Shown here piece by piece: positions 2,771-21,389 of a stretch of 32,000 bases of DNA. The notes below the pieces were generated by a model that ran no database searches, was not told the origin of the DNA, and was given only the letters and a program-made list of their open reading frames with translations. This DNA is from Breznakia sp. PF5-3. Its GTDB lineage: Bacteria; Bacillota_I; Bacilli_A; Erysipelotrichales; Erysipelotrichaceae. The translations under genes and the position numbers were made by a program. Location of the stretch: positions 1 to 32,000 of the forward strand of contig NZ_JAQFIQ010000020.1 of the NCBI RefSeq assembly GCF_029504745.1, in the 5' to 3' direction. How positions within the stretch are numbered: the stretch's first letter is position 1; every line of letters starts with the position of its first letter.

Positions 2771-2797
2771 AAAAGTTCTACTCTTTGTAGAACTTTT
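2771..2797. terminator. Bidirectional intrinsic terminator between convergent genes
   Basis: Perfect 11-bp stem AAAAGTTCTAC / GTAGAACTTTT with loop TCTTT. A/T runs on both sides. Overlaps the stop codon of the minus-strand SIS gene. Confidence 0.7.
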
Positions 2798-3896
2798 ATT
2801 CATCTTCTTCTTTATGTGTTTTGCGATATTCTTTTGTGCGAAAATCAATTACTTTATTCATTTCGTAATAAAGTGGATGAGATTTTGTAGAGTTTAAATC
2901 TTTTGACATTTTTGCTGCAATCAATTCAAAGAATGGCAAATAATATAAACAACTAAAAGGTTCTTCACAAGTGTTTTCAACAGTTACAACACGTTTATTT
3001 GAAATACTTGAAGGTGTAATCATAAACACATTGTCACTCACCTTACAAAGTCCTTTATATACTTGTTGTGCATGATGACTTGTATGGTCATTATTATCGA
3101 CTACAAATGCTGTATATTTTGGCGATAATTGAAGTGCTGGACCGTGTAGGAATTCATCTTGTTCATAACCAACAGCTAAAACTTTCACAGCTTCTCCTAT
3201 TTTGAGAGCTCCCTCAAGGGCACTCCCATAGTTACTTCCACATCCCATTACATACACGCGATCCATTGTCATTAAACGTTTATAGTTTTTTTCAATGAAA
3301 ACTTCTGTTTTATCACATACTTCTTTGTGAATTTTCATCGCTTTTTTTATTTGTTGAAGACAGTGATCAACTTGATTTGAACGTTGTAATCGTTTTGCAC
3401 TATATGCAGCAAATAATTGTAAATATACAATAAGTGTTACAACTCCTAAGGTTACAAAGCCAACCGTTTCAATACCACAACCCCAATCAAATACTTTTGT
3501 AGCATATTTTTTTGCGTCACTGTTGATATCACTAGTTAAGACATAAGCATTCATATTTTTGTCTTTGAGAGCTTGTAATGCATCAATACAATTTGTGCTT
3601 GCACCACTTTGTGAGATAACTAAGACAAAATCATCCTCCTTTACACTGTGAATATCGTAGTTTGTGAAAGTATAAGGGTTTATTACACTTGTTGGTATTT
3701 GCAATGTTTCTTTTAAATAGGTACGTGCACAGTGGGCAGCAGTATAACTTGATCCAGAAGCAACTAGCATAATTTGTTTGTATTCTTTTTCACAAAATGC
3801 ATCAACGATATCTTTCACTAATGCGTTTGGGTCTTTTAGATTTTCTAAAACTACTTTTGGTGTTCCATAAATATAATTTTCCATTGTTAGTGTCAT
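2796..3896 (-). CDS. SIS-domain sugar-phosphate isomerase/deglycase paralog (two-SIS, GlmS-isomerase-like)
   Basis: SIS motifs VASGSSY and VISQSGASTN. Paralogous to the ORF at 5619-6749. AGGAGG (3909-3904) lies 7 nt from the ATG at 3896 but only 1 nt from the track start at 3902, so 3896 is preferred. Confidence 0.8.
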   Translation of the reverse strand: MTLTMENYIYGTPKVVLENLKDPNALVKDIVDAFCEKEYKQIMLVASGSSYTAAHCARTYLKETLQIPTSVINPYTFTNYDIHSVKEDDFVLVISQSGASTNCIDALQALKDKNMNAYVLTSDINSDAKKYATKVFDWGCGIETVGFVTLGVVTLIVYLQLFAAYSAKRLQRSNQVDHCLQQIKKAMKIHKEVCDKTEVFIEKNYKRLMTMDRVYVMGCGSNYGSALEGALKIGEAVKVLAVGYEQDEFLHGPALQLSPKYTAFVVDNNDHTSHHAQQVYKGLCKVSDNVFMITPSSISNKRVVTVENTCEEPFSCLYYLPFFELIAAKMSKDLNSTKSHPLYYEMNKVIDFRTKEYRKTHKEEDE

Positions 3897-3909
3897 TTGC
3901 ATACCTCCT

Positions 3910-4965
3910 CTATATAGTTACTGTATGTTTTGATACGCCAATAGGGGTATCAGGATTATATCCTCTAGCAAGGGCTAATAAGCATGAGAACATCTGTGCT
4001 ACAACAGCGCTAGCGAAAACTGCTTGAATACCATCGTATATATTTGGAATCATGATTTTATAGTCCCCAAGTTTACTGATTTCTTCATCATTTGTAACAA
4101 TCAACGATAAGATGTTTTTTTCCTTTTTTAAACGGTCATGCAACTGCACAATCGAATCATTTGTTTTCTTGTCAGCGATAAAGAAAATGGTTGGAATAAA
4201 TGATGTGGCTGTTGCGATTGGACCATGTTGATAATCACTGCTTGCATAACATCTAGCATCTAAATAGCTAGTCTCTTGAATTTTTAATTCTGCTTCTTCA
4301 CATAAGCCATATAACAAACCTCTACCAAACAGTAATAAACGTTCACTGTTTCTAAAGATTGGGATGATGGCTTTTACCTGATTTTCTAAAGTGTATGCAT
4401 CTTTTACGACATTCGCTAATGTATCAAGCGAATCGATTAAGCCTTGGTCTTTTGACAGGTATGCTGCTAATGCAGTGACTAAGGTAAGTTGTGTAATGTA
4501 AGATTTCGCTGCAGTAATACTTTCTTCAACACCGCATTCATTATTTAAGCGATAATCTCCAATAGTAGACATTAAAGAATCTCTTTCATTGGTGATGGAA
4601 ACACAAATACCACCATCTTTTACACACTTTTCCATAACCATATAGCAATCTTTTGCTGCTCCAGATTGAGAAATTCCAACAACGAGTGCATTTTGGTAGT
4701 TGGTTTTTCCATTGTAACAAGTAACAACAGAAGGGGTAGCGGTGCTAGCAATCATATCAGAATATATTTCGATTAAGTATTTACCAACTTTTGCAGCATG
4801 ATCACTACTTCCTCTAGCGGCGAATACCACTGTTTTTATTCCGCGCTTATGAACTTCATCAGCAATTTTTTTAATATGTGGAAGATTGATTTGTAAACAA
4901 TTTTTAATACATACATCTTGTTCGTGAATCTCTTTCCAAAGTTTTGATGTTTCTAAACGAATCAT
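3910..4965 (-). CDS. SIS-domain protein, AgaS/GlmS-C-terminal-like (aminosugar-6-P deaminase/isomerase type)
   Basis: Motifs AARGSSDHAA and GISQSGAAKD. C-terminal DTPIGVSKHTVTI resembles the GlmS/AgaS tail. The start overlaps the upstream HAD stop (ATGA), and AAGGAG lies 8 nt upstream. Confidence 0.8.
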   Translation of the reverse strand: MIRLETSKLWKEIHEQDVCIKNCLQINLPHIKKIADEVHKRGIKTVVFAARGSSDHAAKVGKYLIEIYSDMIASTATPSVVTCYNGKTNYQNALVVGISQSGAAKDCYMVMEKCVKDGGICVSITNERDSLMSTIGDYRLNNECGVEESITAAKSYITQLTLVTALAAYLSKDQGLIDSLDTLANVVKDAYTLENQVKAIIPIFRNSERLLLFGRGLLYGLCEEAELKIQETSYLDARCYASSDYQHGPIATATSFIPTIFFIADKKTNDSIVQLHDRLKKEKNILSLIVTNDEEISKLGDYKIMIPNIYDGIQAVFASAVVAQMFSCLLALARGYNPDTPIGVSKHTVTI

Positions 4966-5618
4966 GTATTTATCTCCTTTATAATGTCAATTATTTCTAT
5001 TAAATTTATAACTTTATAATCTGCTTTTTCTTGATTATAAGAAAAACGATTATCATATTTTGCAATGCAAGTTAAACCAGCTCGCTTTGCTGCTTCAATC
5101 CCATATTCACTATCTTCAATAGCAATGCATTCATAATCTTTAAGGTTTAGATGTTGTACACAAGTTATATATATTTCAGGGTTTGGCTTGGATTCCTTAA
5201 ACATATTACCACTCATGATGTCATCAAAATAGGGGGTTAGATTGCATGTTCGCAACACTTCATTGATATTTTCAACACTAGAACTTGATGCAATCATCGT
5301 TTTAAACCCTTTTGCTTTTATCCATTTCAATACATCTTTAACCTCGGGATCAAGAAGTTTTGTATAATCTATAGGATTTTGTTTATAAAAGGTATTTAAC
5401 TTTGTTTCAAAGGTTTCATAAGGTATTCCATTTGCATTCATGATGGGGGTTAAAACAGCTTTTTGTTGGACGTGATTCCCACCAGCTAATGGATAGAGTT
5501 GTTCTTTGTTAAGTGAAATTTGAAATTCTTTTTCTGCCATATCTATGATTTGCTGCATATAAAAGATTTCACTGTCAATGATAACTCCATCCAAGTCAAA
5601 GATAATGGCTCTAATCAT
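4962..5618 (-). CDS. HAD-superfamily sugar phosphatase (beta-phosphoglucomutase-like subfamily)
   Basis: HAD motifs FDLDGVIIDSE, ASSSS, KPNPEIY and IEDSEYG. The start abuts the stop of the upstream SIS gene (TAAATG). Confidence 0.85.
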   Translation of the reverse strand: MIRAIIFDLDGVIIDSEIFYMQQIIDMAEKEFQISLNKEQLYPLAGGNHVQQKAVLTPIMNANGIPYETFETKLNTFYKQNPIDYTKLLDPEVKDVLKWIKAKGFKTMIASSSSVENINEVLRTCNLTPYFDDIMSGNMFKESKPNPEIYITCVQHLNLKDYECIAIEDSEYGIEAAKRAGLTCIAKYDNRFSYNQEKADYKVINLIEIIDIIKEINT

Positions 5619-6749
5619 TTAAACTACCTTTTTTGCGCTGTTTGATTCAGGCATAATATCTTTAATGGTATCGGTTTTTAATGAAATGTGTTCATTAAAA
5701 TCGTTGTATAGAGGGTGTTTTTCCCATCGGTTTAACTCTTCTGTGATATAGTATGCGAATAATTGGAAACAAGGGAGTACATAAAGAGGGGATAATAATG
5801 GTTCTTTCACTTCAAAAGGAATGTGTAATGTATGGTCATCTTCTTTTCTTGTTGAAACAAGGAAGGCTCTATCACTTACATATCTAGTGGCTTTATAAAT
5901 TTCTAATAAACGATCACTTCCTTGATCAAGGTCATCAATTAACAAAATGGTATAATTTGGTGTTAACTGCAAGTTAGGACCATGGATGTATTCTTCAGCT
6001 TCATATACAAAACTTGGGATTTGAACGGTTTCTCCAATTTTAAGAGCACTTTCGTTAGCAATTCCTAGACCTTGCGAGAACCCAACACTATAACATACAC
6101 TCATAGCAGTTAGAGCTTTTCTATGTAGTTTGTAGAACGCATTTGTTTGCTCTTGCATTTGCTTGTGATAAACAGGTGTTTTTTTCATTTCTTCAAGCAC
6201 AGAGTCATATACGTTGGTTTCAATTTTTTTAGTTGCTAAAGCAGCTTCTAAAGCGAATAGCATTAAGAACTCTGCTAAGGTAGTTACACCTTTTGTAACG
6301 TAACCAACCGATTCTACTCCAACTCCATAATCAATCATTGGGTCTGCATAATCTTTGAAATCAGAATTGGCATTACCAGTGATTCCAATTGGATTATATC
6401 CCATAGTTTTTAATTTTTTTAACGCATCAATCGAATTGGTTGAACAACCGCTTTGAGAGATGACCATCGCAAAATCATTTTCTTTCAACTTATCTTCACC
6501 AAAGTTAAATGTACTTGGGGTTACGATTTTCACATCACAGTTCAAATACTTCATCATAAATGGCTTTGCACAACTACTACCATTAGAACTAGAGCCAGAA
6601 GCAATGATCCAGATAGTATCATATTCTTTAGCAGTATACAGATCCACCATTGTTTTTGTAAGAGCTTTACGATTCTGAATGTTCTTTTCGATCTGTTCAG
6701 GTGTCTCTTTAATATAAGTAAGCATCGTAGGTTTGTTGTTTGTTTTCAT
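5619..6749 (-). CDS. SIS-domain sugar-phosphate isomerase/deglycase paralog; first gene of the minus-strand operon
   Basis: Motifs ASGSSSNG and VISQSGCSTN, plus a second SIS half. AGGAGG lies 5 nt upstream of the ATG. Confidence 0.8.
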   Translation of the reverse strand: MKTNNKPTMLTYIKETPEQIEKNIQNRKALTKTMVDLYTAKEYDTIWIIASGSSSNGSSCAKPFMMKYLNCDVKIVTPSTFNFGEDKLKENDFAMVISQSGCSTNSIDALKKLKTMGYNPIGITGNANSDFKDYADPMIDYGVGVESVGYVTKGVTTLAEFLMLFALEAALATKKIETNVYDSVLEEMKKTPVYHKQMQEQTNAFYKLHRKALTAMSVCYSVGFSQGLGIANESALKIGETVQIPSFVYEAEEYIHGPNLQLTPNYTILLIDDLDQGSDRLLEIYKATRYVSDRAFLVSTRKEDDHTLHIPFEVKEPLLSPLYVLPCFQLFAYYITEELNRWEKHPLYNDFNEHISLKTDTIKDIMPESNSAKKVV

Positions 6750-6804
6750 ATAGTCCTCCTTATTACAATGTCAACAAAAATTATAATAACAATATTACAA
6801 ATAT

Positions 6805-6813
6805 ATTATATCA
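6805..6813 (-). promoter_or_regulatory. Candidate extended -10 (TGATATAAT on minus strand) for the SIS/HAD operon
   Basis: The reverse complement of 6805-6813 reads TGATATAAT. It lies about 55 nt upstream of the start at 6749. No convincing -35. Confidence 0.3.
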
Positions 6814-6979
6814 AACTAATTACAAAAGGGAAGATATGAATTTAAAAAAATCGAACAAATAATCTAGATATTGTAAATAAACCTTTAAAATAAAGGTTAT
6901 AGTCATATTTTAATAAAGTCAAAACAGAAAATATGTTATATTCAAAATTAAAAATAATTAATAAATTTGTAATAACATA

Positions 6980-7008
6980 TTGACAAATTGTCATGACAAA
7001 GTTATTCT
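6980..7008 (+). promoter_or_regulatory. Sigma-A-type promoter of the PTS/FrlB-like/fusion operon
   Basis: TTGACA (6980-6985), 17-nt spacer, TATTCT (7003-7008). Lies about 45 nt upstream of the EIIB start. Confidence 0.5.
6981..6999. promoter_or_regulatory. Overlapping palindromes TGACAA-A-TTGTCA-TGACAA; putative GntR/HutC operator inside the promoter spacer
   Basis: 6981-6993 is a perfect 6-1-6 inverted repeat. 6988-6999 is a perfect 12-bp palindrome TTGTCATGACAA. A further TGTCA lies at 7011-7015. Confidence 0.45.
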
Positions 7009-7052
7009 AATGTCATAAGGTACCTTTAAACAACTGAGAGAGGTGATAATGT

Positions 7053-7526
7053 ATGACAGAACCAAATATTGTGTTTGCACGAATTGACAATCGTTTGGTG
7101 CATGGACAAGTTGGTAACTCTTGGGTTGGAGCTGTAAATTGTAATTTGATTGTAGTTGCAGATGATCAATGTGCGGAAGATAAAATTCAACAATCATTAA
7201 TGAAGATGACAGCCGATTCGGCAGGAGTAGGAATTCGTTTTTTCACATTACAAAAAACAATTGATGTAATTCATAAAGCGAATGCGAATCAACATATTTT
7301 TATTGTGTGTCAAAATCCTGATTCAATGCGTAAATTGATTGAAGGTGGCGTACCAATTAAAGCAGTAAACGTTGGTAATATGCACGTGAAGCCAGGTAAA
7401 AAAGTTTATCATGAAGCACATGTATATGTAGACGATAAGGATTTAGAAGATTTTGAAGCTATGAAGAGTAAAGGGGCAGAAGTATATATTCAAATTGCTC
7501 CAGGAGACAAAAAATATAAAATTTAG
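7053..7526 (+). CDS. PTS mannose/fructose/sorbose-family EIIB component
   Basis: N-terminal ARIDNRLVHGQV, the phospho-His motif of Man-family EIIB. About 157 aa. SD AGGTGA. Confidence 0.9.
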   Translation: MTEPNIVFARIDNRLVHGQVGNSWVGAVNCNLIVVADDQCAEDKIQQSLMKMTADSAGVGIRFFTLQKTIDVIHKANANQHIFIVCQNPDSMRKLIEGGVPIKAVNVGNMHVKPGKKVYHEAHVYVDDKDLEDFEAMKSKGAEVYIQIAPGDKKYKI

Positions 7527-7541: not shown

Positions 7542-8336
7542 ATGGAAATAACACTATTTCAAGGTTTAATGTTAACCGTTGTTGGGTTTATATGTGGTTT
7601 AGATCAGTGTTGGGAAGCATTCTTTTGGTTTCGACCAATGGTTGTTTCTTTCTTAGCAGGTATTGTCTTAGGTGATGTGCAGCTAGGAGTGGCATGTGGA
7701 GCAGTAGCAGAATTATCATACTTAGGACTATTGAGTGTAGGAGGTACCGTACCTCCAGATCCATTAATGGCTGGTATGATGACAGTGGTCATTGCATACA
7801 CGACTGGTCAATCCGCAGAAACGGCAATCGGACTTTCACTACCATTTGCTTTATTAGCACAATGGATGGGAATTTTCTTCAACACTGTATATGTGGGGAT
7901 TGCTCATAGATGTGATAAATTGGCAGCTGAAGGGGATGCTAATGGATTTAAAAGAATTGTATATGCAGGGATATTAATTAAAACATCAGCGATTGCATTG
8001 CTTGTATTCTTATGTACATATGCATTGCAAGCTCCGATTCAATCTTTTGTAAATACATTCCCAGAAGAATTGATTCACGGGTTTGAAATTGCTGGAGGAT
8101 TATTACCTGCAATTGGTTTAGGTTTACTTTTGATGGTTACTTTGAAGAAAGAAAATGCACCATATTTATTCTTAGGATTTATTATGGCAACATTCTTAGT
8201 AATGCCAAATGTAATGCCAATTGCGATTGTCGGTGTTTGTTTAGCATTTATTAATTACATGTATGAAAAGAAAATTGATAATGCATCTGCAACGGTAACA
8301 GTAAATGATATTGGAGGTGAAGAAAATGGCATCTAG
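7542..8336 (+). CDS. PTS mannose-family EIIC component
   Basis: 264-aa polytopic membrane protein in the Man-family IIC position. Glycine-rich segments resemble the second-locus IIC. Confidence 0.9.
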   Translation: MEITLFQGLMLTVVGFICGLDQCWEAFFWFRPMVVSFLAGIVLGDVQLGVACGAVAELSYLGLLSVGGTVPPDPLMAGMMTVVIAYTTGQSAETAIGLSLPFALLAQWMGIFFNTVYVGIAHRCDKLAAEGDANGFKRIVYAGILIKTSAIALLVFLCTYALQAPIQSFVNTFPEELIHGFEIAGGLLPAIGLGLLLMVTLKKENAPYLFLGFIMATFLVMPNVMPIAIVGVCLAFINYMYEKKIDNASATVTVNDIGGEENGI

Positions 8337-9129
8337 TCAAAAGCGAGGAAAACTTACAAAAAAAGATATTACTCGGATGGGATTATATTCTATCATTGAA
8401 CAATCAGCATTTAGTTTTGAACGTATGCAAGCGCCAGGATTCACATTATCTATGTTACCTGCATTTAAAAAAATATATGGAGACTCAAAAGAAGATTTAG
8501 CAGAATTCATGACGTACAATATGGAGTTTATGAATACAGAGCCTCATATGGCAACATTCTTAATGGGATTAATTCTTTCAATGGAAGAAAATGGGGAAGA
8601 TCGCAAATTGATTGAAGGGATTCGTAATGGTTTGTTTGGACCATTTGCAGGATTAGGAGATGCTATCTTCTGGTTTACATTATTACCAATTTCGGCAGCA
8701 ATCTGTTGTTCATTGGCACAAGATGGTTCCGTATTAGGACCAATCTTATATATTGTAATTTGGTTTATTGCAGCGATATCTAGAGTATTCTTTGCGAGAT
8801 TTGGATATAACCTAGGAGTTAAAGCGGTATCAAGAATTTCGGAAAGTACAAAATATTTAACGAAAGCTGCAGGAATTTTAGGTGTTATGGTAGTTGGTGG
8901 TTTAATTCCATCATATATTAATGTAGCGTTTAGTGAAAACTTAAAATTTGGTCTAGGGGAAGGAACTACTGTACAAAGTGTATTTGATAATATTTTACCT
9001 AACATTCTTCCGTTAGCGTTTGTATTCTTAATTTATTGGTTATTTAAGAAAAAGAATGGAAATGTACTTATTATTATTTTAGGAATCATTGCTTTCAGTA
9101 TTGCAATGTCATTCTTAGGTTGGATGTAA
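8326..9129 (+). CDS. PTS mannose-family EIID component
   Basis: N-terminal KLTKKDITRM...ERMQAPGF and GDAIFW motifs typical of IID. The ATG at 8326 has GGAGGTG 8 nt upstream, and the CDS overlaps the IIC end. The track start at 8305 was rejected. Confidence 0.9.
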   Translation: MASSQKRGKLTKKDITRMGLYSIIEQSAFSFERMQAPGFTLSMLPAFKKIYGDSKEDLAEFMTYNMEFMNTEPHMATFLMGLILSMEENGEDRKLIEGIRNGLFGPFAGLGDAIFWFTLLPISAAICCSLAQDGSVLGPILYIVIWFIAAISRVFFARFGYNLGVKAVSRISESTKYLTKAAGILGVMVVGGLIPSYINVAFSENLKFGLGEGTTVQSVFDNILPNILPLAFVFLIYWLFKKKNGNVLIIILGIIAFSIAMSFLGWM

Positions 9130-9190: not shown

Positions 9191-10189
9191 ATGAATAATT
9201 TTAATGAAATAAAGATGTTAGAAGATGGTGCATTTATTTATAATCGTAGAAGTGAAATTGAGCAAATAGCAGATGCTGTATGTGAAAAGGGCTTTTGTAA
9301 TATTTTGTTTTCGTCAGTGGGTGGAAGTCAGGCGATGATGGATCCATTCCAAATTTTTATCGATGAAATGAGTGATATTCAATCATTCTCAGAATTATCA
9401 AGCACACTTATTTTTGGTGAAAACAATCAAATTAGTAAAGATACTTTAGTGTTTATGTCTAGTAAATCAGGGGATTCTAAGGAAACGGTGGCAGCGGCTG
9501 AGTATTTGAAAAAGATTGGTTGTACGATTGTTTCAGTTGTAGGGATGCCAGATTCAAAGATGGAGAAATTGAGTGATTATTGCTTTGTTTATAAAGATGG
9601 AAGACCACAAGAATTAGTAATGTATTTGTTGATTGGAAAGATTTTATATAATAAAGGCTTTTTTAAAGATTATATGAAGTTTGCAAAAGAGTTAGAGCAA
9701 TTACCTGCTGTATTAGTTGCAGTACGTAAGCAAGCGGATGCACAAGCGCTTGCTTATTGCGAAAAATATTATGCAGAACCATACAATATCTGGATTGCTT
9801 CAGGTAGTTTGTGGCCTGTTTGTTATGCTTATGCAATGTGTGTATTGGAAGAAAGTCAATGGATTCGCACCAAATCTGTATCGAGTCCAGAGTTTTTCCA
9901 TGGAACCTTGGAATTGGTGGAAAAGGACGTATGTTGTACATTGTTAATTGGCGAAGGGAAAACACGAAGTATTGATTTGCGAGTAAAGAAATTTATTGAA
10001 ACATATAGTGATAAAGCAAACGTTTTTGATTGTGCAGATTATGCTTATCCAGGAATATCAGATGAATTCAGATCTTTATTATCTCCCGTTGTAATGAATG
10101 CAATTCTACAAAGGATTTCAAAGAATATGGAAGTTGTTACTGGACATTCTTTGGATATCCGAAGATATTATCGTAAAGTAGAATATTAA
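9191..10189 (+). CDS. FrlB-like ketosamine-6-phosphate deglycase (SIS family)
   Basis: SIS motifs SSVGGS and MSSKSGDSKET. EFFHGTLELVE and the C-terminal RRYYRKVEY match the E. coli FrlB pattern (EFRHGPLEIVE ... RRYYGGLVEY). AGGAGG SD. Confidence 0.85.
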   Translation: MNNFNEIKMLEDGAFIYNRRSEIEQIADAVCEKGFCNILFSSVGGSQAMMDPFQIFIDEMSDIQSFSELSSTLIFGENNQISKDTLVFMSSKSGDSKETVAAAEYLKKIGCTIVSVVGMPDSKMEKLSDYCFVYKDGRPQELVMYLLIGKILYNKGFFKDYMKFAKELEQLPAVLVAVRKQADAQALAYCEKYYAEPYNIWIASGSLWPVCYAYAMCVLEESQWIRTKSVSSPEFFHGTLELVEKDVCCTLLIGEGKTRSIDLRVKKFIETYSDKANVFDCADYAYPGISDEFRSLLSPVVMNAILQRISKNMEVVTGHSLDIRRYYRKVEY

Positions 10190-12321
10190 TGAAAGTATTA
10201 GGATTAGGAGATAATGTAGTAGATGTATATCGGAATTTAGAAAAGAGTTATCCTGGTGGGAATGCATTAAACAATGCAGTAAATGCAGCTAAATTAAATT
10301 ATCAAAGTGCTTATTTAGGGAATTTTGCAGATGATATGTATGGAGAATACATGCAATTTATTTTAAAGTCCATGGGGATTGATATTTCAAAGTGTGTTTG
10401 TATTCATGATAGCACTACTAAAAAGTGTATTGTTGATGTATTTGAAGGGGAACGAAACTTTGTAGGTGTTGATTTGGGTGAGCATTATGCAGGATGTATT
10501 AATATTACAGCTCAACAACAATCATATATTGAAGATTTTGATATTATCTTTACTAGTTGTAATGCTAAGATTGAAGAACAGTTATATAAATTGGCAAAGG
10601 TGAAAGGAATCGTTAGTTATGATTTTGGTGAAAAAGAAAAATATCGTACAACCACATATCTTTCTAAAGTACTTCCTTACATTGATTTTGCACAGTTCTC
10701 AATCAATGGTATTTCTGCAGAGGAAGCATTAGCGCTTGTTAATCAACTGCAAATTGATAAGCCAACCTTGATTACGCGAGGTGGGGAATCACCTATTTTT
10801 ATATATCAAGGGACTTATTATTTAGGAAAAATGCATAAAATAAAAGCCAAAGATACTATGGGGGCAGGAGATGCGTTTATTACCAAGTTTATAACGCAAT
10901 TATATACTACAACTAAGGGTGACAAATTAGCGGAAGAACAGATTGGAAAAGCACTTCATGATGCAGGATTATATGCTTCAGAAGTTTGTAAGATAGATGG
11001 AGGATTTGGGTTTCCATACTTGAAATATAATCTTCAAGGTGTCTTATTTGATATGGATGGTGTACTTGTTGATAGTGAACAATATTGGGTGGAAATAGCA
11101 GAAAAAATTCTTTATCAACACGGATATCACTTTAATGAAATTGACAAAGAACGATATTATGGTTGTTCTTTAAAGCAAGAGGTTGAATTAATTAATCAAT
11201 ATATAGAAATTTCAGAAAAGAATTTTCTTGATCAAAAACAAACGATGGTAGAACGATATCCATGCGACTATCAACAGATGTTGATGCCATATGCGAAAGA
11301 TTTGATTATATGGTTAAAAAGCAAGGGTGTAAAATTGGGTATTGTTTCATCAAGTACTAGAAAAGAAATAAATGAAATGCTTATACAATGTCAGTTACAA
11401 GATGTTTTTACTGTGATTGTTTCTGGAGATATGGTAAAACATTCCAAGCCGAATCCTGAAATTTATCAATATGCTATGAAAGAAATGAAAATAACAAATG
11501 ATAAAGTAATTGTAATAGAAGATTCTGGTTATGGAATAAAGGCAGCACAAGAAGCGGGATTGAATGTAATTGCAATGAAGAATCAAGCAAATAATCAAGC
11601 ATTAAAAGAAATGAATGTGTATTTTGCTTCTCATGATGATATAAAAACGTATTTAACGTTCATAAGTAAAGATAAAAAACTATTATGTCCTAGCATGATG
11701 TGCGCAGATTATGGCTCGTTAAAAGAGGAAGTTTTAAACTTAGATGCAGCTGGTGTAGATATTTTTCACTGTGATGTAATGGATGGTAGTTTTGTACCAA
11801 ATATGACGATGGGCATAATGGATATAAAGACGATTCGAAAGTATACAAAGAAGATGATTGATGTACATTTAATGGTTGAAAATCCTTTGGCAAAGATGGA
11901 TTTATTTATTGATGCTGGAGCTGATATCATTTATATTCATCCTGAGGCGGAACGCTATGTAATTAAAGCGATTATGTATATTAAATCAAAAGGAAAACTT
12001 GCAGGGATTGCAATTAATCCAGATACGAGTGTGGAAACGATTAAAGAGATGTTGAAGCTAGTTGATTATGTCATGATAATGAGTGTAAATCCAGGATTTA
12101 CAGGACAAGATTTTATAGAATTTACAATTGATAAAATTAAGCAATTAGCAGAAATAAAAAAACAAAGACCGTTTAAGTTGATTGTTGATGGTGCGATAAC
12201 GATAGAGAAAATGAAGCGTTTAAATGTGCTTGGTGTTGATGGCTATGTGCTTGGAACGAGTTCTTTGTTTAAAGAAAATGTGAATTATAAAGAACAAATG
12301 AAAAAATTAAGAAATTTATAG
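10189..12321 (+). CDS. Tri-domain fusion: FrlD-like PfkB ketosamine kinase (aa 1-277) + HAD phosphatase (aa 284-493) + ribulose-phosphate/allulose-6-P 3-epimerase-family domain (aa 497-710)
   Basis: Uninterrupted 710-codon ORF. Kinase motifs GDNVVDVY..GGNALNNA and DTMGAGDAF. HAD motifs FDMDGVLVDSE, VSSS, KPNPEIY and IEDSGYG. RPE motifs HCDVMDGSFVPN, DVHLMV, MSVNPGFTGQ and VDGA. The start overlaps the upstream stop (TAATG). Confidence 0.85.
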   Translation: MKVLGLGDNVVDVYRNLEKSYPGGNALNNAVNAAKLNYQSAYLGNFADDMYGEYMQFILKSMGIDISKCVCIHDSTTKKCIVDVFEGERNFVGVDLGEHYAGCINITAQQQSYIEDFDIIFTSCNAKIEEQLYKLAKVKGIVSYDFGEKEKYRTTTYLSKVLPYIDFAQFSINGISAEEALALVNQLQIDKPTLITRGGESPIFIYQGTYYLGKMHKIKAKDTMGAGDAFITKFITQLYTTTKGDKLAEEQIGKALHDAGLYASEVCKIDGGFGFPYLKYNLQGVLFDMDGVLVDSEQYWVEIAEKILYQHGYHFNEIDKERYYGCSLKQEVELINQYIEISEKNFLDQKQTMVERYPCDYQQMLMPYAKDLIIWLKSKGVKLGIVSSSTRKEINEMLIQCQLQDVFTVIVSGDMVKHSKPNPEIYQYAMKEMKITNDKVIVIEDSGYGIKAAQEAGLNVIAMKNQANNQALKEMNVYFASHDDIKTYLTFISKDKKLLCPSMMCADYGSLKEEVLNLDAAGVDIFHCDVMDGSFVPNMTMGIMDIKTIRKYTKKMIDVHLMVENPLAKMDLFIDAGADIIYIHPEAERYVIKAIMYIKSKGKLAGIAINPDTSVETIKEMLKLVDYVMIMSVNPGFTGQDFIEFTIDKIKQLAEIKKQRPFKLIVDGAITIEKMKRLNVLGVDGYVLGTSSLFKENVNYKEQMKKLRNL

Positions 12322-12330
12322 GAGGTATAT

Positions 12331-12762
12331 ATGATCGGATTAGTATTAACAGGGCATGGGGAGTATGCTTCAGGATTAACATCATCATTAAAGTTAATCG
12401 CAGGAGATCAGCTTGAACAGTATGAGTATATAGATTTTAAAAAAGAAGATGACGTGGATACTTTAGAAAGGAACATAAAAACCGCTTTTGATCGCTTGGA
12501 AAATTGTGATGGAATTCTTGTATGTTGTGATTTAATTGGTGGTAGTCCATTTAAAAGTGCAGTTACATTGGGAATGGAAAAAGAAAATGTGAAAGTAGTA
12601 GCAGGAACAAATTTGCCAATGCTTTTAGAAGTGAATACAATGCGCTTTGCGCATGATGATGTAGCAACACTGGCTCATCAAATTGCAGAAGTTGGAAAAC
12701 AGATGATAATGGTATATGAGTACGAAGAGGTATCGGATACGGAAGGAAGTGATGGTATCTAA
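12331..12762 (+). CDS. PTS mannose-family EIIA component (displaced from EIIBCD)
   Basis: N-terminal IGLVLTGHGEYASG (phospho-His) and GGSPFK motifs. AGGAGG SD. Confidence 0.85.
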   Translation: MIGLVLTGHGEYASGLTSSLKLIAGDQLEQYEYIDFKKEDDVDTLERNIKTAFDRLENCDGILVCCDLIGGSPFKSAVTLGMEKENVKVVAGTNLPMLLEVNTMRFAHDDVATLAHQIAEVGKQMIMVYEYEEVSDTEGSDGI

Positions 12763-12763
12763 A

Positions 12764-13585
12764 ATGAAAAAGGGATATTTGTATTTGTTTATCACTGCTT
12801 TTTGTTGGAGTACAGCAGGTACATTTATTCGCTTTAATTCACAATCAGGCTTATTGATTGCTTGTATTGGCTCAGTAGTAGCATTATTTTTTAATCTATG
12901 TTTTTATCGTAAACAATGGAAGTTCAATTCCACTATCTTAGCAGTAGCAATTTTTCAGGTAATCTGTGGTATTACGTTTATCTATGCAAATCAATTAACG
13001 AGTGTTGGAAATGCAATTGTTTTACAGTATACATCGATGATTTTTGTACTAATCTTTGAAAGCGTTGATAAACGCAGATTACCAATGTTAAGGCAATTGG
13101 TTATCATTGCAATTGTAATATTTGGAATGGTATTGTTCTTTTTAGATAGCATCAGTGTGAAGGGGATGATTGGGAATGCTTTAGCAATCATCTCTGGTGC
13201 TTTTTTTGGATTGCAATTTTATATCAATACCAAACCATTAGCAGATGCATATAGTTCAACCAATATCAGTTACTGTCTAACGATGCTTTTTTTGGTTTTT
13301 ATTTTTCATGATCTTTTTAAAGTTCGTTCATTAGAATGGGGAGCTATGCTTGCCAGTGGCGTTTTTCAAACGGCACTTGGAGGGATTTTCTTTGCGAAAG
13401 GGATTAAAGAAGTATCTGCATTTACAGCAAATGTAATTTGTATGTCAGAAATCATTTTGGCACCTTTATGGACATTTATACTGTTTCATGAAACCATTAG
13501 CATCGTTTCACTTTTTGGTGCATTTATTATTGTGTTGGGTATTTTGGCGAATATTTATATTGAATTTCACCAGAGCACAGACTAG
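12764..13585 (+). CDS. EamA/DMT-superfamily permease
   Basis: About 10 predicted TM segments with two EamA-like halves. Start chosen at ATG 12764 just after the EIIA stop; 12752 and 12716 are in-frame alternatives that overlap EIIA. Confidence 0.75.
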   Translation: MKKGYLYLFITAFCWSTAGTFIRFNSQSGLLIACIGSVVALFFNLCFYRKQWKFNSTILAVAIFQVICGITFIYANQLTSVGNAIVLQYTSMIFVLIFESVDKRRLPMLRQLVIIAIVIFGMVLFFLDSISVKGMIGNALAIISGAFFGLQFYINTKPLADAYSSTNISYCLTMLFLVFIFHDLFKVRSLEWGAMLASGVFQTALGGIFFAKGIKEVSAFTANVICMSEIILAPLWTFILFHETISIVSLFGAFIIVLGILANIYIEFHQSTD

Positions 13586-13915: not shown

Positions 13916-14692
13916 ATGGGTGATTATGTAACGGACAAAAGATATAAACATTTAAATAGAAATTCGGCATTGCCTTTATATTATCAATTGAAAGAACATA
14001 TCAAAGAAGCGATTGTAAAAGGGCAATATAAGGCAAATGATAAATTGCCAACGGAAGAAGAACTATGTAAGGAATTTTCTATATCTCGTCCAGTTGTTCG
14101 TCAAGCATATGATGAATTAATCAAAGAAGGATTGGTAGGAAGACACAAGGGAAGAGGAACATTTGTAAAGAAAACGGCAGATAAACACTCTTTATTTAAA
14201 GACTTTATTGGCTTTTCATTTGAAGAAAATGTGAGGGATTTAGAAAAAGAATCTAAAATAGTAAAAGTAGAAAAAATTACTGATCCGTTGATTGCTATGC
14301 GGATGGAAATTCCTAAAGATAGTGAACTTTTGCATATTATTCGTATTGTTCATGATCTTGAATATCCAGTATCGATGATTGAATCGTATTTGCCAGTTGA
14401 TTATTTTATTAATATCGAAAAATATATGTTGATTTCAATAGATAAAACAATTATTGAATTAATTGAAAGCTTGTATGGAATTCATATTGATAAAGCAATT
14501 AGATCGCTTACAGCAATGAAGATTTCAAAAGAGAGAGCAGACTTTCTTCATGGAAATATCGATGATTTGGTATATGAAATAGAAACCCAATATGTTGATG
14601 TATTTGAACGTAATGTGATTTTGGAATATGTTACTTATTTAGTGAGTAAAATGAATATTAATATTGAAGTAAATCGAAAGCAGTCATTATAA
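13916..14692 (+). CDS. GntR-family (HutC/UTRA subfamily) transcriptional regulator
   Basis: Winged-HTH signature LPTEEELCKEFSISRPVVRQAYDELIKEGLVGRHKGRGTFV plus a ~150-aa UTRA-like C-terminal part. AAAGGAG SD. Confidence 0.9.
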   Translation: MGDYVTDKRYKHLNRNSALPLYYQLKEHIKEAIVKGQYKANDKLPTEEELCKEFSISRPVVRQAYDELIKEGLVGRHKGRGTFVKKTADKHSLFKDFIGFSFEENVRDLEKESKIVKVEKITDPLIAMRMEIPKDSELLHIIRIVHDLEYPVSMIESYLPVDYFINIEKYMLISIDKTIIELIESLYGIHIDKAIRSLTAMKISKERADFLHGNIDDLVYEIETQYVDVFERNVILEYVTYLVSKMNINIEVNRKQSL

Positions 14693-14710: not shown

Positions 14711-14739
14711 AGCTATACCACAAGGTATGGCTTTTTTTG
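14711..14739 (+). terminator. Intrinsic terminator after the GntR gene
   Basis: 9-bp stem AGCTATACC / GGTATGGCT (one G-U), loop ACAA, then T7. Confidence 0.75.
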
Positions 14740-14941
14740 TTATAATAGAAAGAGATAGATATAGGTATATATTAAAAATATTTTTTAAATGTTGTATATT
14801 TCACAAATTATTAACATTATTGAGATATTTCATTTTAGTAAAATTTAATTGTTATGAAATAAAAGATGGATTATATAGAACAGGGAAGGGTTTCATTTTG
14901 TATATCATCCAATTGTGATTATTCCAAGAAAGGAATTATAT

Positions 14942-17900
14942 ATGTTAAAACTTACTAATATTCGCAAATCATATAAAACTTATAATTTTACTCAAGTTGC
15001 ATTGAATGATGTTTCAATTTTGTTTCGAGATAATGAGTTTGCAGCAATACTGGGTTCTTCAGGGTCTGGGAAAACGACAATGTTAAATATTATTGGAGGA
15101 CTTGATCGTTATGATTCTGGTGATCTTGAAATTGATGGAATATCAACCAAAAAGTATACATCATCTGATTGGGATGCTTATCGTAATAATCGAATTGGAT
15201 TTGTATTTCAAAGTTACAATTTAATTCCTCATCAAACAATATTGTCAAATGTTGAATTAGCGCTTACGTTAAGTGGCGTATCAAAAGCAGAGCGTAGAAA
15301 AAAAGCAAAAGCTGCACTGGAAGAAGTAGGACTTTTGGATCATATAAGAAAACTGCCAAGCCAGCTTTCTGGAGGGCAAATGCAGCGTGTTGCGATAGCA
15401 CGTGCATTAATTAATGATCCAGAGATATTGCTTGCAGATGAGCCTACTGGAGCATTGGATACCAAAACAAGTGAACAGGTAATGGAACTGTTAACAAGAA
15501 TTGCCAAGAACCGTTTAGTTATTATGGTTACACATAATCCTGCATTGGCTGATAAGTATGCTAATCGAATTATTCAATTGAAAGATGGAGAAATCATAGA
15601 CGATACAAATCCATTGTCTTTGCATGAAGAAATGGCTGTAACAAAGAAGGCACCACGTAAAGTTAGTATGTCTTTTCTTACTGCCATTTCATTATCACTT
15701 AGTAATATGATGACCAAAAAGGGAAGAACGTTCATTACGTCTTTAGCTGGATCGATTGGGATTATCGGAATTGCTGCAATTTTGGCTTTGGCTAGTGGAA
15801 TAAATGCATATATTGCCAATATCGAAGAAGAGACGATGAGTGTCTACCCGCTTACCATTCAAGCTTCTGGTATTGATATAACGAGTATGCTGGGAGATCC
15901 TGAAAATATGACTACCAAAGGTAGTAGTAAAAATGAGGATAGTGATGTAGGGGTACGTAATATTTTTGAAACGATGTTTAGTTATCAAAATCAAAACGAT
16001 TTAACTTCTTTAAAAGCCTATATTGAGAAAAACAATGATAAAATTGATCCGTATGTTAAAAATATTCAGTATAAATATGATATTATTCCGCAAATATACT
16101 TAACAGATACTAGCAAGGGAATTTATCAAGTGAGTCCAGACGCTATATTGAAGAGTTATGGTATAGGTTCTAGTACAGGGATGAGTGCAATTATGGGGAA
16201 CAGTTCTATGATGGGAATGAATAATTTTCATGAATTACCTGGAGATAGCACAATGTTTGAGAATCAATATGATATCAAGGCAGGACGATGGCCCAAAAAG
16301 TATGATGAAACAGTATTGGTTTTAACATCAAACGGGAATGTATCAGATTATGTACTATATTCTTTGGGGTTGAAAGATCGAGATGAGCTAAAAAAGATGT
16401 TAGATACTTTTGTAAATGAACCAGGAAAAAGCGTCAATATAAAAGCAGATGATAATAATATTACCTTTAACAAATTAATGAATTCTAAGCTTACGGTGAT
16501 TCATCCATCTGATAAATATGTGTATGATGAAAAATATAAGGTATGGATAGATAAATCAGATAATGATACACATATGAAGCAAACGATTGAACAAGGGGTA
16601 GATTTAAAGATTGTAGGTGTTGTACAAGCGGATCCAGATGCTACTGCTACCTCATTGGCTTCAGGTATCAACTATACACCAGAGTTAACACAATATTTAA
16701 TTACAACATCTGCTGATACGAAAATTGTAAAAGAGCAATTAAACAAACCAACGATGAACATTTTCACAGGAAAATCATTTGTTGAAGAAAAGAATGAAAG
16801 CAACTCACAATTTGACTTTAAAGAGTTATTCACAATTGATGAGGATGCAATACGTAATGCTTTTCATATTGATACATCACAATTGAATGTGGATATGTCT
16901 TCTTTTGATATCAATATGAATGATATAACTCTTCCTGAAATGAATTTAGGAAATTTAAACCAAGAGATTGCGGGTCAAATCAATATCCCTGCAGATAAGT
17001 TAAATGCAATCATGGAAAATGTATTAAGAGACTTTGTTCAAGAACAAATACGAGATGGAGTAAGTGATCCAGAAGTAGTTATTCAAAATCTAATTGCATA
17101 TTTAAATAGAGATGATGTACAAGCAAACATCAATAGACAGCTTGCGGAAGCAATTGATACTAGTCAACTTAGTGATCAACTCAGTAAAGTAATTCAAGAG
17201 TATATGACAAATGCAATGCAGACATATGTTACACAAATGATGACTACTTTACAAAATCAGATTCAAAATCAAATTCAAAGTGCTCTTGAACAGTTTCCTC
17301 AACAGATGCAAAATGCAATGTCGATTGATCAAGAAGCCTTTGCAGCAGCATTTAAATTGAATATTAGTGAAGATGATATCCTGGATTTGATGACGACGAT
17401 GTTAAGCCCGAATGAAACAACGTTAGAGAGCAATTTATCAACGTTAGGATATGCGGATATAAAAACACCAAATCAAATTAATATATATCCTAAAGATTTT
17501 ACATCAAAAGAAAATGTAATTCATTTCTTACAAGATTATAATCATAAAATGGAAAAAGCTGGAAATGATGATAAAGTTGTTCGCTATAGTGATATTGTAG
17601 GGACAATGATGTCTTCTGTAACAGATATTGTGGATACGATTAGCTATACATTGGTTGCTTTTGTAGCGATTTCTTTAATTGTATCTTCCATTATGATTGG
17701 AGTAATTACTTATATATCTGTACTGGAAAGAAAAAAAGAAATTGGGATTCTTCGAGCGATTGGAGCCAGCAAACGAGATATTCGTTGGGTATTTAATGCA
17801 GAGACACTAATTATTGGTTTTATTGCTGGAATGATTGGTATCGTAGTAACATATTTATTAAGTATCGTTGCTAATATTATCGTTTATAATGAATTGGGAA

Positions 17901-18040
17901 TTGCAAATATTGCACAATTGCCACCAACTGCAGCAGCGATATTAGTCTTAATTAGTATGGCATTAGCTTTTATTTCTGGATTATTCCCATCTTCAGCAGC
18001 AGCACGCAAAGACCCTGTAGAAGCACTTAGAAGTGAATAG
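14942..18040 (+). CDS. Fused MacB-type ABC transporter: N-terminal ATPase + FtsX-family permease with a ~600-aa extracytoplasmic domain
   Basis: Walker [10 protein letters not shown], signature [15 protein letters not shown], Walker [11 protein letters not shown]1 at about aa 270-300. C-terminal FtsX block ([19 protein letters not shown] ... [11 protein letters not shown]). The ATG at 14942 has AAAGGA 7 nt upstream; the track start at 14915 is a GTG. Confidence 0.85.
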
Positions 18041-20637: not shown

Positions 20638-21366
20638 ATGAGTCAAAAACCAACTACTACACCTTTATATTTACAAGTATATAAAGAGTTGTTGAAAAGA
20701 ATTGAAAATGGTATTTATGAAGTGAATGATATGCTTCCTTCAGAAGCGGAGCTTCAAAAAGAATTTAGCGTCAGCAGAATTACGATTCGAAGATCCTTGC
20801 AGGATTTAGAACTTGCTGGTTATATAAAGATATCGAGAGGAAAAGGAGCTCATGTATTGCCACATCGTCAATATACAAATCTTGTTGGAGCATCTAGTTT
20901 CTCACAAGAAGCAGTAAAATCAGGTGAGCGACCTTCATCCATTATTTTGGATTTCCATGAGATGAAAGCAAGTGGTATTATATGTGAGTACTTGCAAGTG
21001 AATGAAGGTGATGATATCTATTATTTGAAGCGTTTACGGCTGAAAAATGGACGTATTATTGGAATGAATGAAACATACATATCAAAGAAATTTGGACTTA
21101 TAATCAGCGATCAGGATTTGGATGAGAAGACATCTATATATGCACTATATGAAAAGCATGGAGAATCAATTGAACGTGCCGTTGAAACCATTGAAGCACA
21201 AATGCCATCTTCAAGTATGCGCAATGAATTGTATATGAGCGAGGGTGAACCAGTCTTTCGAAGAGAGCGGATAACGTATGGAAGTAATAATCTAGCTTTA
21301 GAGTTTTCAATCAATACGTATAAAGCAAATGAATATAAATATGTAATACAATTAAAAAAAGGGTAA
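20638..21366 (+). CDS. GntR-family (HutC/UTRA subfamily) transcriptional regulator of the second PTS island
   Basis: LPSEAELQKEFSVSRITIRRSLQDLELAGYIKISRGKGAHV plus a UTRA-like C-terminus. AGGAGG SD. Confidence 0.9.
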   Translation: MSQKPTTTPLYLQVYKELLKRIENGIYEVNDMLPSEAELQKEFSVSRITIRRSLQDLELAGYIKISRGKGAHVLPHRQYTNLVGASSFSQEAVKSGERPSSIILDFHEMKASGIICEYLQVNEGDDIYYLKRLRLKNGRIIGMNETYISKKFGLIISDQDLDEKTSIYALYEKHGESIERAVETIEAQMPSSSMRNELYMSEGEPVFRRERITYGSNNLALEFSINTYKANEYKYVIQLKKG

Positions 21367-21387: not shown

Positions 21388-21389
21388 AG

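Follow-up and report, generated by a model that had tools for sequence, protein, structure and literature searches.

Genes of the locus

The window, a 32,000-nucleotide stretch of DNA from Breznakia sp. PF5-3, contains two divergent operons proposed to serve the use of glycated amino acids. The host is an insect-gut bacterium of the Erysipelotrichaceae. The + strand encodes, in order, PTS subunits IIB, IIC and IID, an FrlB-type SIS protein, a three-domain fusion, IIA, an EamA permease and a GntR regulator; three SIS-domain enzymes and a HAD phosphatase are on the - strand.

2796..3902, - strand: 368-aa SIS enzyme of the GlmS-isomerase/deglycase type, which ends the divergent operon
3910..4965, - strand: 351-aa SIS enzyme resembling NagB-II and GlmS isomerase (2-amino-sugar-6-P deaminase type)
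4962..5618, - strand: stand-alone HAD-IA phosphatase, 218 aa (Pfam HAD_2, 2.1e-31)
5619..6749, - strand: SIS-domain enzyme, 376 aa, GfrE-like (PDB 2aml, 3.1e-39; dyad Glu240-x15-His256)
6750..7052, no strand: intergenic control region from which the two operons diverge, with a promoter-like match
7053..7526, + strand: mannose-family PTS IIB (Pfam PTSIIB_sorb, 2e-47)
7542..8336, + strand: mannose-family PTS IIC (Pfam EII-Sor, 1.3e-63)
8326..9129, + strand: mannose-family PTS IID (Pfam EIID-AGA, 1.1e-88)
9191..10189, + strand: GfrF / Salmonella-FrlB-type fructoselysine-6-phosphate deglycase, 332 aa, by PDB matches
10189..11016, + strand: fusion domain 1, FrlD-like PfkB kinase of a PTS-linked subfamily (residues 1-276)
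11038..11664, + strand: fusion domain 2, predicted HAD-IA sugar-phosphate phosphatase (residues 284-492)
11680..12321, + strand: fusion domain 3, predicted RPE-family, AlsE-like 3-epimerase (residues 498-710 and the stop codon)
12331..12762, + strand: mannose-family PTS IIA (Pfam EIIA-man, 3.3e-24)
12752..13585, + strand: EamA/DMT permease (gene call; Pfam EamA, 1.2e-23)
13916..14692, + strand: GntR/UTRA regulator, FrlR-like (Pfam GntR and UTRA)

The IID start at 8326 is that of the gene caller (in L093), and the longest open reading frame begins at 8305. The control region contains TTGACA-17-TATTCT (6980-7008, + strand), which is promoter-like by consensus match only. Terminator-like hairpins follow the GntR/UTRA gene (14711-14732) and lie at the end of the 368-aa SIS gene (2767-2801, bidirectional).

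All four SIS proteins of the locus have a Glu-x15-His pair, the catalytic dyad described for deglycases (PMC10285752). [quoted passage not shown] These matches bear out an original prediction that the setting is frl-like, with neighboring deglycases. The 368-aa protein (dyad Glu237-x15-His253) matches the NCBIfam model for the C-terminal half of GlmS (1e-29) and, best in the PDB, 2aml (3.4e-27). The 351-aa protein (dyad Glu231-x15-His247) matches NCBIfam NagB_SO3506 at 9e-50, below the cut-off, and the GlcN-6-P deaminase structure 8eol at 1.2e-30. The 376-aa enzyme, a putative GfrE, is found in all related loci, and its family is named glucoselysine-6-phosphate deglycase by the automatic annotation of both NCBI and JGI. 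The stand-alone HAD is a paralogue of the HAD in the fusion (38% identical by BLAST), and both belong to a bPGM/YqaB-like subfamily.

Uptake by a non-PTS route had been proposed for this locus. This is contradicted by the presence of IIB, IIC and IID directly upstream of the fusion and its deglycase neighbor and IIA directly downstream, all in one operon, with the phospho-histidines of IIB (motif RLVHGQV) and IIA (in TGHG) kept. IIB scores 232 bits against the NCBIfam galactosamine IIB model (cut-off 180), and IIA scores 129.9 bits against AgaF (cut-off 130). The EamA permease, which is likewise encoded in relative loci L004, L006, L008 and L009, could export the released amino acid or a dephosphorylated sugar-amine, or could yet be a second importer beside the PTS. 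The top NCBIfam model for the regulator is NF008491 (PRK11402), at 116.9 bits and below its cut-off.

A three-domain fusion protein

The fusion gene and the FrlB-type gene are translationally coupled, the stop codon of the latter overlapping the start of the former (TAATG, 10187-10191). From 10189 to 12321 on the + strand there is one open reading frame, uninterrupted from ATG to TAA over 710 codons. As originally predicted, it joins a PfkB kinase (residues 1-276), a HAD-IA phosphatase (284-492) and an RPE-family epimerase (498-710), and Pfam assigns all three (PfkB, 19-264, 1.4e-21; HAD_2, 285-462, 1.6e-38; Ribul_P_3_epim, 499-690, 4.8e-57). The linkers (277-283 and 493-497) are short, about 5-7 residues each, in agreement with the earlier reading. 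At the junctions no Shine-Dalgarno sequence lies at a working distance from any in-frame start, in line with the earlier reading that internal starts are lacking there. Codons 503-504 are an in-frame ATG ATG, and a start at this point would remove the first barrel strand of the epimerase. The AlphaFold2 model has a mean pLDDT of 85.4 and a pTM of 0.76, and Foldseek returns the expected fold for each part (target TM 0.87 for RPE, 0.65-0.72 for PfkB kinases and 0.81 for HAD).

The single three-domain chain is genuine. Gene calling yields the same 710-residue protein, 100% identical, on six different contigs of 20-50 kb, so the fusion is not an artefact. A search of 1.84 billion representative proteins for the architecture, which had been suggested as a check, found one other triple fusion; it has 709 residues, is 44% identical, comes from an unrelated assembly and has the same continuous three-domain frame. 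That only two such proteins occur among so many representatives might suggest that a sequencing or assembly error joined three genes, or that at least one domain is an inactive relic. This explanation is very improbable and already largely refuted, given the six separately assembled copies, the second fusion in the same frame, the retention of every catalytic residue of all three domains in both proteins, the G+C content that is uniform over both junctions, and the three confidently predicted folds. The component enzymes are ordinary; their three-way combination is almost unique.

Family motifs are intact in all three domains, as had been reported. The kinase has GDNVVD (7-12), the GG switch GGN (23-25) and the catalytic DTMGAGD (222-228), and the latter two are invariant across 22 relatives. 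Its top NCBIfam model is fructoselysine 6-kinase (FrlD, NF007321), at 114.8 bits and under the cut-off of 247. The kinase is 26% identical to E. coli FrlD, with which it has GDNxVD, GGNAxN and DTMGAGD in common, and it differs by a 3-residue basic insertion, with the extra segment KxKYR. The corresponding sequence, DFGEKEKYR (145-153), fits the motif DF[GS]xKxKY[RHW], which occurs in 26 of the 28 kinases from PTS-containing loci, against 6 of the 57 from loci without a PTS. Alignment to the fructokinase 5ey7 places the extra Lys/Lys/Arg in the segment that lines the PfkB sugar pocket. The PTS-linked kinases are a distinct FrlD-like subfamily whose substrate may differ from that of FrlD. The kinase gene adjoins the FrlB-type deglycase gene both here and in related loci.

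The HAD domain has the four HAD motifs (D288xD290, S388, K420 and E444-D445), and D288, D290, S388, K420 and D445 are invariant among 22 family members. It passes the NCBIfam HAD-IA model TIGR01509 (67.8 against a cut-off of 29.4), and falls below the cut-offs of the beta-phosphoglucomutase equivalog TIGR01990 (95.8 bits against 189.4) and of the bPGM/YqaB subfamily model (111.8 against 153.35).

In the epimerase, alignment with 2fli and E. coli Rpe identifies H527, D529, H560 and D667 as the metal and acid-base residues. The domain is 37% identical to E. coli Rpe and 34% identical to E. coli AlsE. It scores 219.1 bits against the rpe model TIGR01163, barely over the cut-off of 212.6, where housekeeping Rpe scores 318 and cluster relatives score 199-218; against the AlsE model NF007266 it reaches 177.7 bits, below the cut-off of 271. 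The motifs PSMMCAD, PGFTGQ and GTSSLF are closer to AlsE than to Rpe. PSxMCxD, PGF[A/T]GQ and a GTSxLF one residue longer are common to this domain and E. coli AlsE, and the canonical Rpe loops PGFGGQ and G-S(A/Y)xF are absent. In the RPE family, loops of the PGFGGQ and GTSxLF types bind the substrate phosphate and set substrate length. Judged by sequence, the domain represents a third, cluster-associated subfamily beside Rpe and AlsE, here fused.

Recurrence in related loci

The joining of kinase and phosphatase in one protein had been regarded as an oddity of this gene. The pairing is instead that of a recurrent family, either fused or as two genes of one operon. Two-domain kinase-HAD proteins form about 30 clusters in Erysipelotrichaceae and Coriobacteriia, always in a gfr-type operon, and the operon skeleton around them is alike in loci L001-L009. 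Kinase and HAD are separate genes of one operon in Faecalibacterium, Gemmiger, Solobacterium and L013. The HAD is missing from many loci with PTS and kinase, including those of the Collinsella type, where none is nearby, and it is present in a few non-PTS frlBD-like loci (L055, L082, L085).

In L006 and L007 a stand-alone RPE gene directly follows the counterpart of the stand-alone HAD gene, between the HAD and SIS genes; this slot is vacant in the Breznakia window and in L001. No RPE gene was found within 9 kb of the kinase-HAD gene in L002, L005 and L009. RPE-HAD two-domain proteins occur elsewhere (P0215, P0317). The conserved kinase-HAD pair, together with an epimerase gene in the clusters of relatives, means that the fusion ties the three activities to one pathway (a "Rosetta stone"). 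Many related clusters also include a bona fide deoC gene, to which our best explanation gives no role.

Comparison with known systems

The locus resembles the Gfr system of Salmonella and Enterococcus (GfrABCDEF) in its four-subunit mannose-family PTS, its FrlB/GfrF-type deglycase and a further SIS enzyme that carries a GfrE-like annotation; Gfr itself has one SIS deglycase each for fructoselysine and glucoselysine. Gfr has no kinase, HAD, epimerase or EamA gene and is controlled by a sigma-54 activator (GfrR), whereas the Breznakia locus has a GntR/UTRA regulator, two SIS enzymes beyond these, two HADs and an obligatorily linked kinase. The gfr operons of Salmonella and Enterococcus faecalis function without a 6-kinase.

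Similarities to E. coli FrlABCDR are an FrlD-type kinase beside an FrlB-type deglycase, an FrlR-like GntR regulator and a 3-epimerase in the gene set. The E. coli system uses the APC permease FrlA, in place of the PTS found here, and lacks a HAD. FrlC, a xylose-isomerase-fold enzyme unrelated to RPE, epimerizes the unphosphorylated ketosamine and has its own gene in the frl operon, whereas in Breznakia an RPE-type domain is part of the fusion. E. coli AlsE (D-allulose-6-phosphate 3-epimerase) and Rpe have the barrel and the H, D, H, D residues in common with this domain. A HAD-IA domain is likewise joined to, or encoded beside, a sugar-phosphate enzyme in Acinetobacter MtlD (mannitol-1-P dehydrogenase/phosphatase) and in rpe-gph pairs. 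Unlike the Breznakia fusion, these are biosynthetic or repair modules that have no kinase and lie outside PTS operons.

Predicted function

We tentatively favor, at somewhat less than even chances for the explanation as a whole, a gfr/frl-type locus for glycated amino acid catabolism, in which the fusion is a trifunctional enzyme and Amadori/Heyns products such as fructoselysine and glucoselysine are imported and split. The FrlD-like domain would use ATP to phosphorylate, at O6, unphosphorylated ketosamine in the cytoplasm, which might come from leakage through the PTS permease, entry via EamA, glycated peptides or the phosphatase itself. The AlsE-like domain would interconvert C3 epimers of ketosamine-6-P or hexulose-6-P, from the psicose type to the fructose type. 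The product would suit the neighboring SIS deglycases/deaminases, which would release glucose-6-P or fructose-6-P and the amino acid. The AlsE-like motifs and the lack of an FrlC-type gene in the cluster are consistent with an RPE-type domain that would take the place of FrlC but work on phosphorylated substrate. The most economical reading of the HAD domain is that it clears dead-end sugar phosphates: it would hydrolyze ketosamine-6-phosphates that accumulate or resist cleavage, and the products could leave the cell, perhaps via EamA. Such a relief valve may protect against the known toxicity of phosphorylated Amadori intermediates. In a Salmonella fraB mutant, growth arrest is attributed to accumulation of 6-phospho-fructose-aspartate (PMC4941530). 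The fusion need not mean channeling and may merely set stoichiometry and co-expression.

Several observations weigh against this trifunctional catabolic role. A 6-kinase is formally superfluous beside a PTS whose phospho-histidines are intact, and ATP would be wasted if kinase and phosphatase, on one chain, shared a substrate. The epimerase passes the RPE equivalog cut-off and fails that of AlsE, the sugar pocket of the PTS-linked kinases carries inserted basic residues, and the Collinsella-type loci combine PTS and kinase without a HAD. The three-way fusion points to unstudied steps in the glycated-amino-acid pathway.

The domains might instead form an ATP-driven epimerization machine that turns a free ketose or ketosamine irreversibly into its C3 epimer, through phosphorylation by the kinase, inversion at C3 of the 6-phosphate by the RPE domain and loss of the phosphate through the HAD. 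It would be the natural equivalent of cascades that have been engineered for D-allulose production. The fusion holds exactly the three activities required, the stand-alone HAD and RPE genes of L006 and L007 are adjacent and overlapping, RPE-HAD proteins are known, and the pTM suggests a defined domain arrangement. We nevertheless consider this quite improbable: the clusters that lack RPE within 9 kb argue that the kinase-HAD pair has a job independent of the epimerase, the order of the domains (kinase, HAD, RPE) is not that of the reactions, and removing phosphate would be wasteful in catabolism because the neighboring deglycases require 6-phosphates. Another proposal with a rather small chance of being right is that phosphate is repositioned. 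The PTS would supply a phosphate of no use to the deglycase, which the HAD removes before the kinase adds one at O6, or it would supply just the first phosphate, the kinase adding a second and the HAD trimming the bisphosphate. Heptose synthesis, with its HldE kinase and GmhB phosphatase, follows the same logic as the latter variant. Repositioning would account for the tight link between PTS and kinase; the kinase motif and the extra Lys/Lys/Arg in the sugar-pocket segment fit it, and fusions of consecutive enzymes are common. These basic residues might just as well bind the carboxylate of the amino acid, however, and the adjacent deglycase closely resembles Salmonella FrlB, which uses PTS-made 6-phosphate without a kinase. 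The distribution of the HAD, absent from many PTS-kinase loci and present in some without a PTS, also speaks against repositioning.

Instead of glycated amino acids, the locus could serve rare ketoses (allulose, tagatose) or free amino sugars of the galactosamine/glucosamine kind. The SIS proteins would then be deaminases or isomerases, the substrate of the kinase would be a ketose or a ketose-6-P, and that of the epimerase a plain hexulose-6-P. For the PTS subunits, the galactosamine set AgaBCD/AgaF supplies the top NCBIfam models, with IIB passing its cut-off, and the 351-aa SIS protein is NagB-II-like. A related Floccifex cluster adjoins NagA-, NagB-, AgaS- and GatZ-like genes, and the nearest relatives of the fused RPE domain lie in a GntR / RPE-mannose-6-P isomerase operon. 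We doubt this substrate range strongly, as the fusion is coupled to an FrlB-type gene (1e-73) that is much nearer to FrlB than to any deaminase, FrlD is the top kinase model and its N-terminal motif is present, the regulator is FrlR-like, and no tagatose-bisphosphate aldolase is present at the locus. It is unlikely that the fusion either epimerizes free ketosamine or ketose at C3 as one machine or has a kinase that acts on phosphorylated ketosamine to give a bisphosphate trimmed by the HAD; either would be a new reaction logic in Amadori-product catabolism.

A kinase-phosphatase-epimerase fusion protein

The gene at 10189-12321 (+) is a single unbroken reading frame of 710 codons, as originally predicted. 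Pfam recovers the three domains that had been assigned to its product:

Residues 19-264: PfkB kinase (Pfam 1.4e-21), with motifs GGN (23-25) and DTMGAGD (222-228)
Residues 285-462: HAD_2 phosphatase (Pfam 1.6e-38), with D288xD290, S388, K420, and E444-D445
Residues 499-690: Ribul_P_3_epim epimerase (Pfam 4.8e-57), with H527, D529, H560, and D667

Motif inspection agrees with the earlier reading that each domain keeps its family motifs and, at the level of sequence, the protein has three intact catalytic domains. The top NCBIfam model for the kinase is fructoselysine 6-kinase (114.8 bits, below the cut-off of 247), the HAD domain passes a generic HAD-IA model, and the epimerase barely reaches the rpe equivalog (219.1 bits versus a cut-off of 212.6). 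Annotation of the HAD domain as a beta-phosphoglucomutase-type mutase is unsupported, as it scores below both curated cut-offs. An AlphaFold2 model of the fusion has a mean pLDDT of 85.4 and a pTM of 0.76. Foldseek recovered each of the three expected folds for this model, and the same structure search found no solved structure that combines kinase, HAD, and RPE.

The original prediction also described short linkers without internal translation starts. We found linkers of ~5-7 residues and saw no usable ribosome-binding site with a start codon at either domain junction. Two-domain relatives stop at residue ~493-497, and the epimerase then begins at once with a normal RPE N-terminus (LLCPSMMCADY).

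The identical 710 amino acid protein is called on six contigs that were assembled separately, G+C is even along the gene, and a second triple fusion (P0002, 709 amino acids) is 44% identical and in the same frame. These observations speak strongly against an assembly or frameshift error; the fusion is therefore confirmed and an artefact very unlikely. We give almost no credence to the protein being either an artefact or a relic.

Genomic context

The textbook routes for fructoselysine use are a kinase with a deglycase (frl) or a PTS with a deglycase (gfr). In Breznakia sp. PF5-3, an Erysipelotrichaceae, the fusion gene lies among the following genes:

From 7053 (+): mannose-family PTS IIB
From 7542 (+): mannose-family PTS IIC
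From 8326 (+): mannose-family PTS IID
From 9191 (+): SIS332, a 332 amino acid SIS-domain protein
From 12331 (+): PTS IIA
From 12752 (+): EamA permease
From 13916 (+): FrlR-like GntR/UTRA regulator
At 14711: terminator-like hairpin that ends the + strand gene set
Opposite strand, divergent across a 300-bp control region: SIS376, a stand-alone HAD (218 amino acids), SIS351, and SIS368 (SIS proteins named by length)

The stop codon of the SIS332 gene and the fusion's start codon share bases (TAATG). SIS332 matches 2A3N and 8GLR over its full length (1e-73). The latter entry is a crystal structure of FrlB from Salmonella, a fructoselysine-6-P deglycase of a PTS-dependent pathway (PMC10285752), and all four SIS proteins of the window have the Glu and His that this study describes as catalytic, with the same 16-residue spacing. 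SIS376 carries the family name glucoselysine-6-P deglycase at NCBI and JGI, by automatic annotation. Given this arrangement of PTS, FrlB-type deglycase, and kinase, the setting thus reads as a gfr-type locus enclosing an frlB-frlD module. The fusion belongs to this fructosamine-type PTS/deglycase locus. The frl-like context noted originally is borne out by that module and the FrlR-like regulator; the proposed uptake by a non-PTS route does not fit a locus with a mannose-family PTS. The phospho-accepting His is kept in IIB (RLVHGQV) and IIA (TGHG), which argues against a PTS that would transport without phosphorylation.

The two closest known systems each account for part of the locus. The PTS and FrlB-type deglycase have counterparts in Salmonella/Enterococcus Gfr, and the kinase, the type of regulator, and the inclusion of a 3-epimerase have theirs in E. 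coli Frl. Unlike both, the locus has an obligatory combination of PTS and kinase, HAD phosphatases, an RPE-family epimerase instead of FrlC, and four SIS enzymes. Our literature search found no published description of a PfkB-HAD fusion or of an RPE-type ketosamine epimerase. A preprint on a Faecalibacterium “gfr” operon describes one gene without a Salmonella counterpart.

Distribution of related proteins

Two scans, one word-indexed over 5.8 billion clusters and one exhaustive with HMMER over 1.84 billion representatives, agree in showing P0002 as the only other triple fusion. Two-domain kinase-HAD proteins (~500 amino acids) form about thirty clusters at 90% identity, or six to seven at 50%. 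Wherever the surroundings were inspected (Floccifex porci, Olegusella, uncultured Erysipelotrichaceae and Coriobacteriaceae, and gut metagenomes), their genes share the skeleton IIB-IIC-IID-SIS332-[kinase-HAD]-IIA with SIS376 nearby, often with EamA, DeoC, and GntR. In Faecalibacterium, Gemmiger formicilis, Solobacterium, and one further MAG, kinase and HAD are two genes of the same operon; the pair therefore predates the fusion. Collinsella, Enterocloster, and Enterococcus asini have the PTS-SIS332-kinase module without a nearby HAD.

The window locus and roughly thirty related protein clusters, from gut Erysipelotrichaceae, Coriobacteriia, Faecalibacterium, and others, unite the frl and gfr routes and supplement them with a phosphatase, an epimerase of the RPE type, and additional SIS enzymes. 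Linkage of kinase and HAD recurs, joined by RPE in the extended clusters. Many related kinase-HAD/PTS clusters (L001, L004-L010, L019, and L020; for example L006:11333-12004) include a bona fide deoxyribose-phosphate aldolase gene (deoC equivalog, 222 bits versus a cut-off of 117), which is absent from the window. Elsewhere, enzymes of this set are fused in other ways (P0215, P0317, P0239, P0328, and P0314): as RPE-HAD (441 and 464 amino acids), FrlD-like kinase-SIS deglycase (633 amino acids), RPE-CBS, and GlpX fragment-RPE proteins.

Across 85 kinases from fetched loci L001-L087, the motif DF[GS]xKxKY[RHW] is present in 26 of 28 from PTS loci versus 6 of 57 from loci without a detected PTS, several of the latter six being on truncated contigs (L012, L023, and L037). 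The window version is DFGEKEKYR (residues 145-153, nt 10621-10647); E. coli FrlD is without the basic insertion. The motif defines the kinases of PTS operons as an FrlD-like subfamily of their own, and suggests a substrate or partner other than that of classical FrlD. Beside an apparently active PTS, the kinase is formally redundant.

Origin of the epimerase domain

Two relatives (L006 and L007) have the order SIS-HAD-RPE-SIS-SIS in the divergent operon, where RPE is an overlapping gene in its own right that encodes 218-222 amino acids. In the window and in L001 this slot is empty and RPE is the C-terminus of the kinase-HAD protein; the kinase, HAD, and RPE activities are therefore parts of a single gene set. 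RPE accompanies the extended module (second HAD, SIS351, and SIS368), not the minimal clusters.

The window RPE domain is 49% identical to that of P0002 and 50-51% to the L006/L007 proteins, versus 72% to P0085, a stand-alone 216 amino acid RPE of the same organism, so direct descent from an L006/L007-type RPE is unsupported. P0085 is encoded in a GntR / RPE-mannose-6-P isomerase operon (L088:2518-4971, another contig) that adjoins cellobiose-type PTS and GH1 genes; this gene arrangement is repeated in L090. NJ bootstraps group the kinase-HAD portions of the two fusion proteins as sisters in 68% of replicates and their RPE portions in <1%, and place the window RPE inside the 216 amino acid clade in 97%. 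By these simple NJ methods, either the fusion would have arisen twice or the RPE module would have been replaced later.

The window RPE and its cluster relatives score 199-219 bits on the rpe model, versus 318 for housekeeping Rpe. In common with E. coli AlsE, the group has the motifs PSxMCxD and PGF[A/T]GQ and a GTSxLF loop that is longer by one residue; the last two would lie in the phosphate-binding loops known from structural work on AlsE. The window domain's 219 bits and AlsE-like motifs rule out a simple copy of housekeeping Rpe. We predict a cluster-associated AlsE-like subfamily, for which a six-carbon ketose-6-phosphate is a more likely substrate than ribulose-5-P.

Predicted function

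It is highly probable that the fusion is a trifunctional enzyme of glycated-amino-acid catabolism. More tentatively, with the odds slightly against this exact division of roles, the kinase may phosphorylate a cytoplasmic ketosamine that carries no phosphate, and the epimerase may supply the deglycases with fructose-type ketosamine- or hexulose-6-P made from the psicose type. This would be an FrlC-like role at the phosphorylated level; E. coli FrlC works on the free compound. The HAD domain may hydrolyze non-cleavable or excess ketosamine-6-P, letting the product exit the cell, perhaps via EamA. Such a relief valve is plausible because phosphorylated Amadori intermediates are toxic in a Salmonella fraB mutant, according to PMC4941530.

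The three activities could instead form an ATP-driven cascade that phosphorylates, epimerizes, and dephosphorylates, which we consider improbable. Repositioning of the phosphate or a bisphosphate route would account for the PTS-linked kinase subfamily, and seems to us similarly unlikely. The Aga-like scores of the PTS suggest a free amino sugar or rare ketose as substrate, an equally doubtful alternative to the glycated amino acid that we favor.

Taken singly, the enzymes are ordinary, and pathways of this type are known; what is almost unique is their combination, which exposes a little-explored branch of Amadori-product use that is widespread among gut bacteria. Heated food brings glycated amino acids into the gut, where they are a contested nutrient, and fructoselysine use shapes colonization resistance against Salmonella. 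The fusion binds the kinase, phosphatase, and epimerase activities to one pathway, and therefore makes directly testable the role of a kinase inside a PTS operon, the proposed epimerization of ketosamine-6-phosphates by an RPE-family enzyme, and the possible existence in bacteria of a built-in relief valve for Amadori intermediates that are toxic when phosphorylated. A one-chain kinase/epimerase/phosphatase may also interest rare-sugar biocatalysis.

Other genes in the window

A second mannose-family PTS cluster (20638-27200, +) encodes GntR, two Amidohydro_2 proteins, IIA/IIB/IIC/IID, an IF-2B/MtnA-like sugar-phosphate isomerase, and a BtpA/SgcQ-family protein. In Olegusella (L005), a similar BtpA, SDR, and PTS set adjoins the kinase-HAD cluster. 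Just past the divergent SIS operon is a gene for a 398 amino acid protein with a MucBP (mucin-binding) domain (1563-2759, +). Two further genes, unrelated to the fusion, encode a 1041 amino acid MacB-like fused ABC ATPase/FtsX permease (14915-18040, +) and a 754 amino acid UvrA-like double-ABC protein (27205-29469, -).
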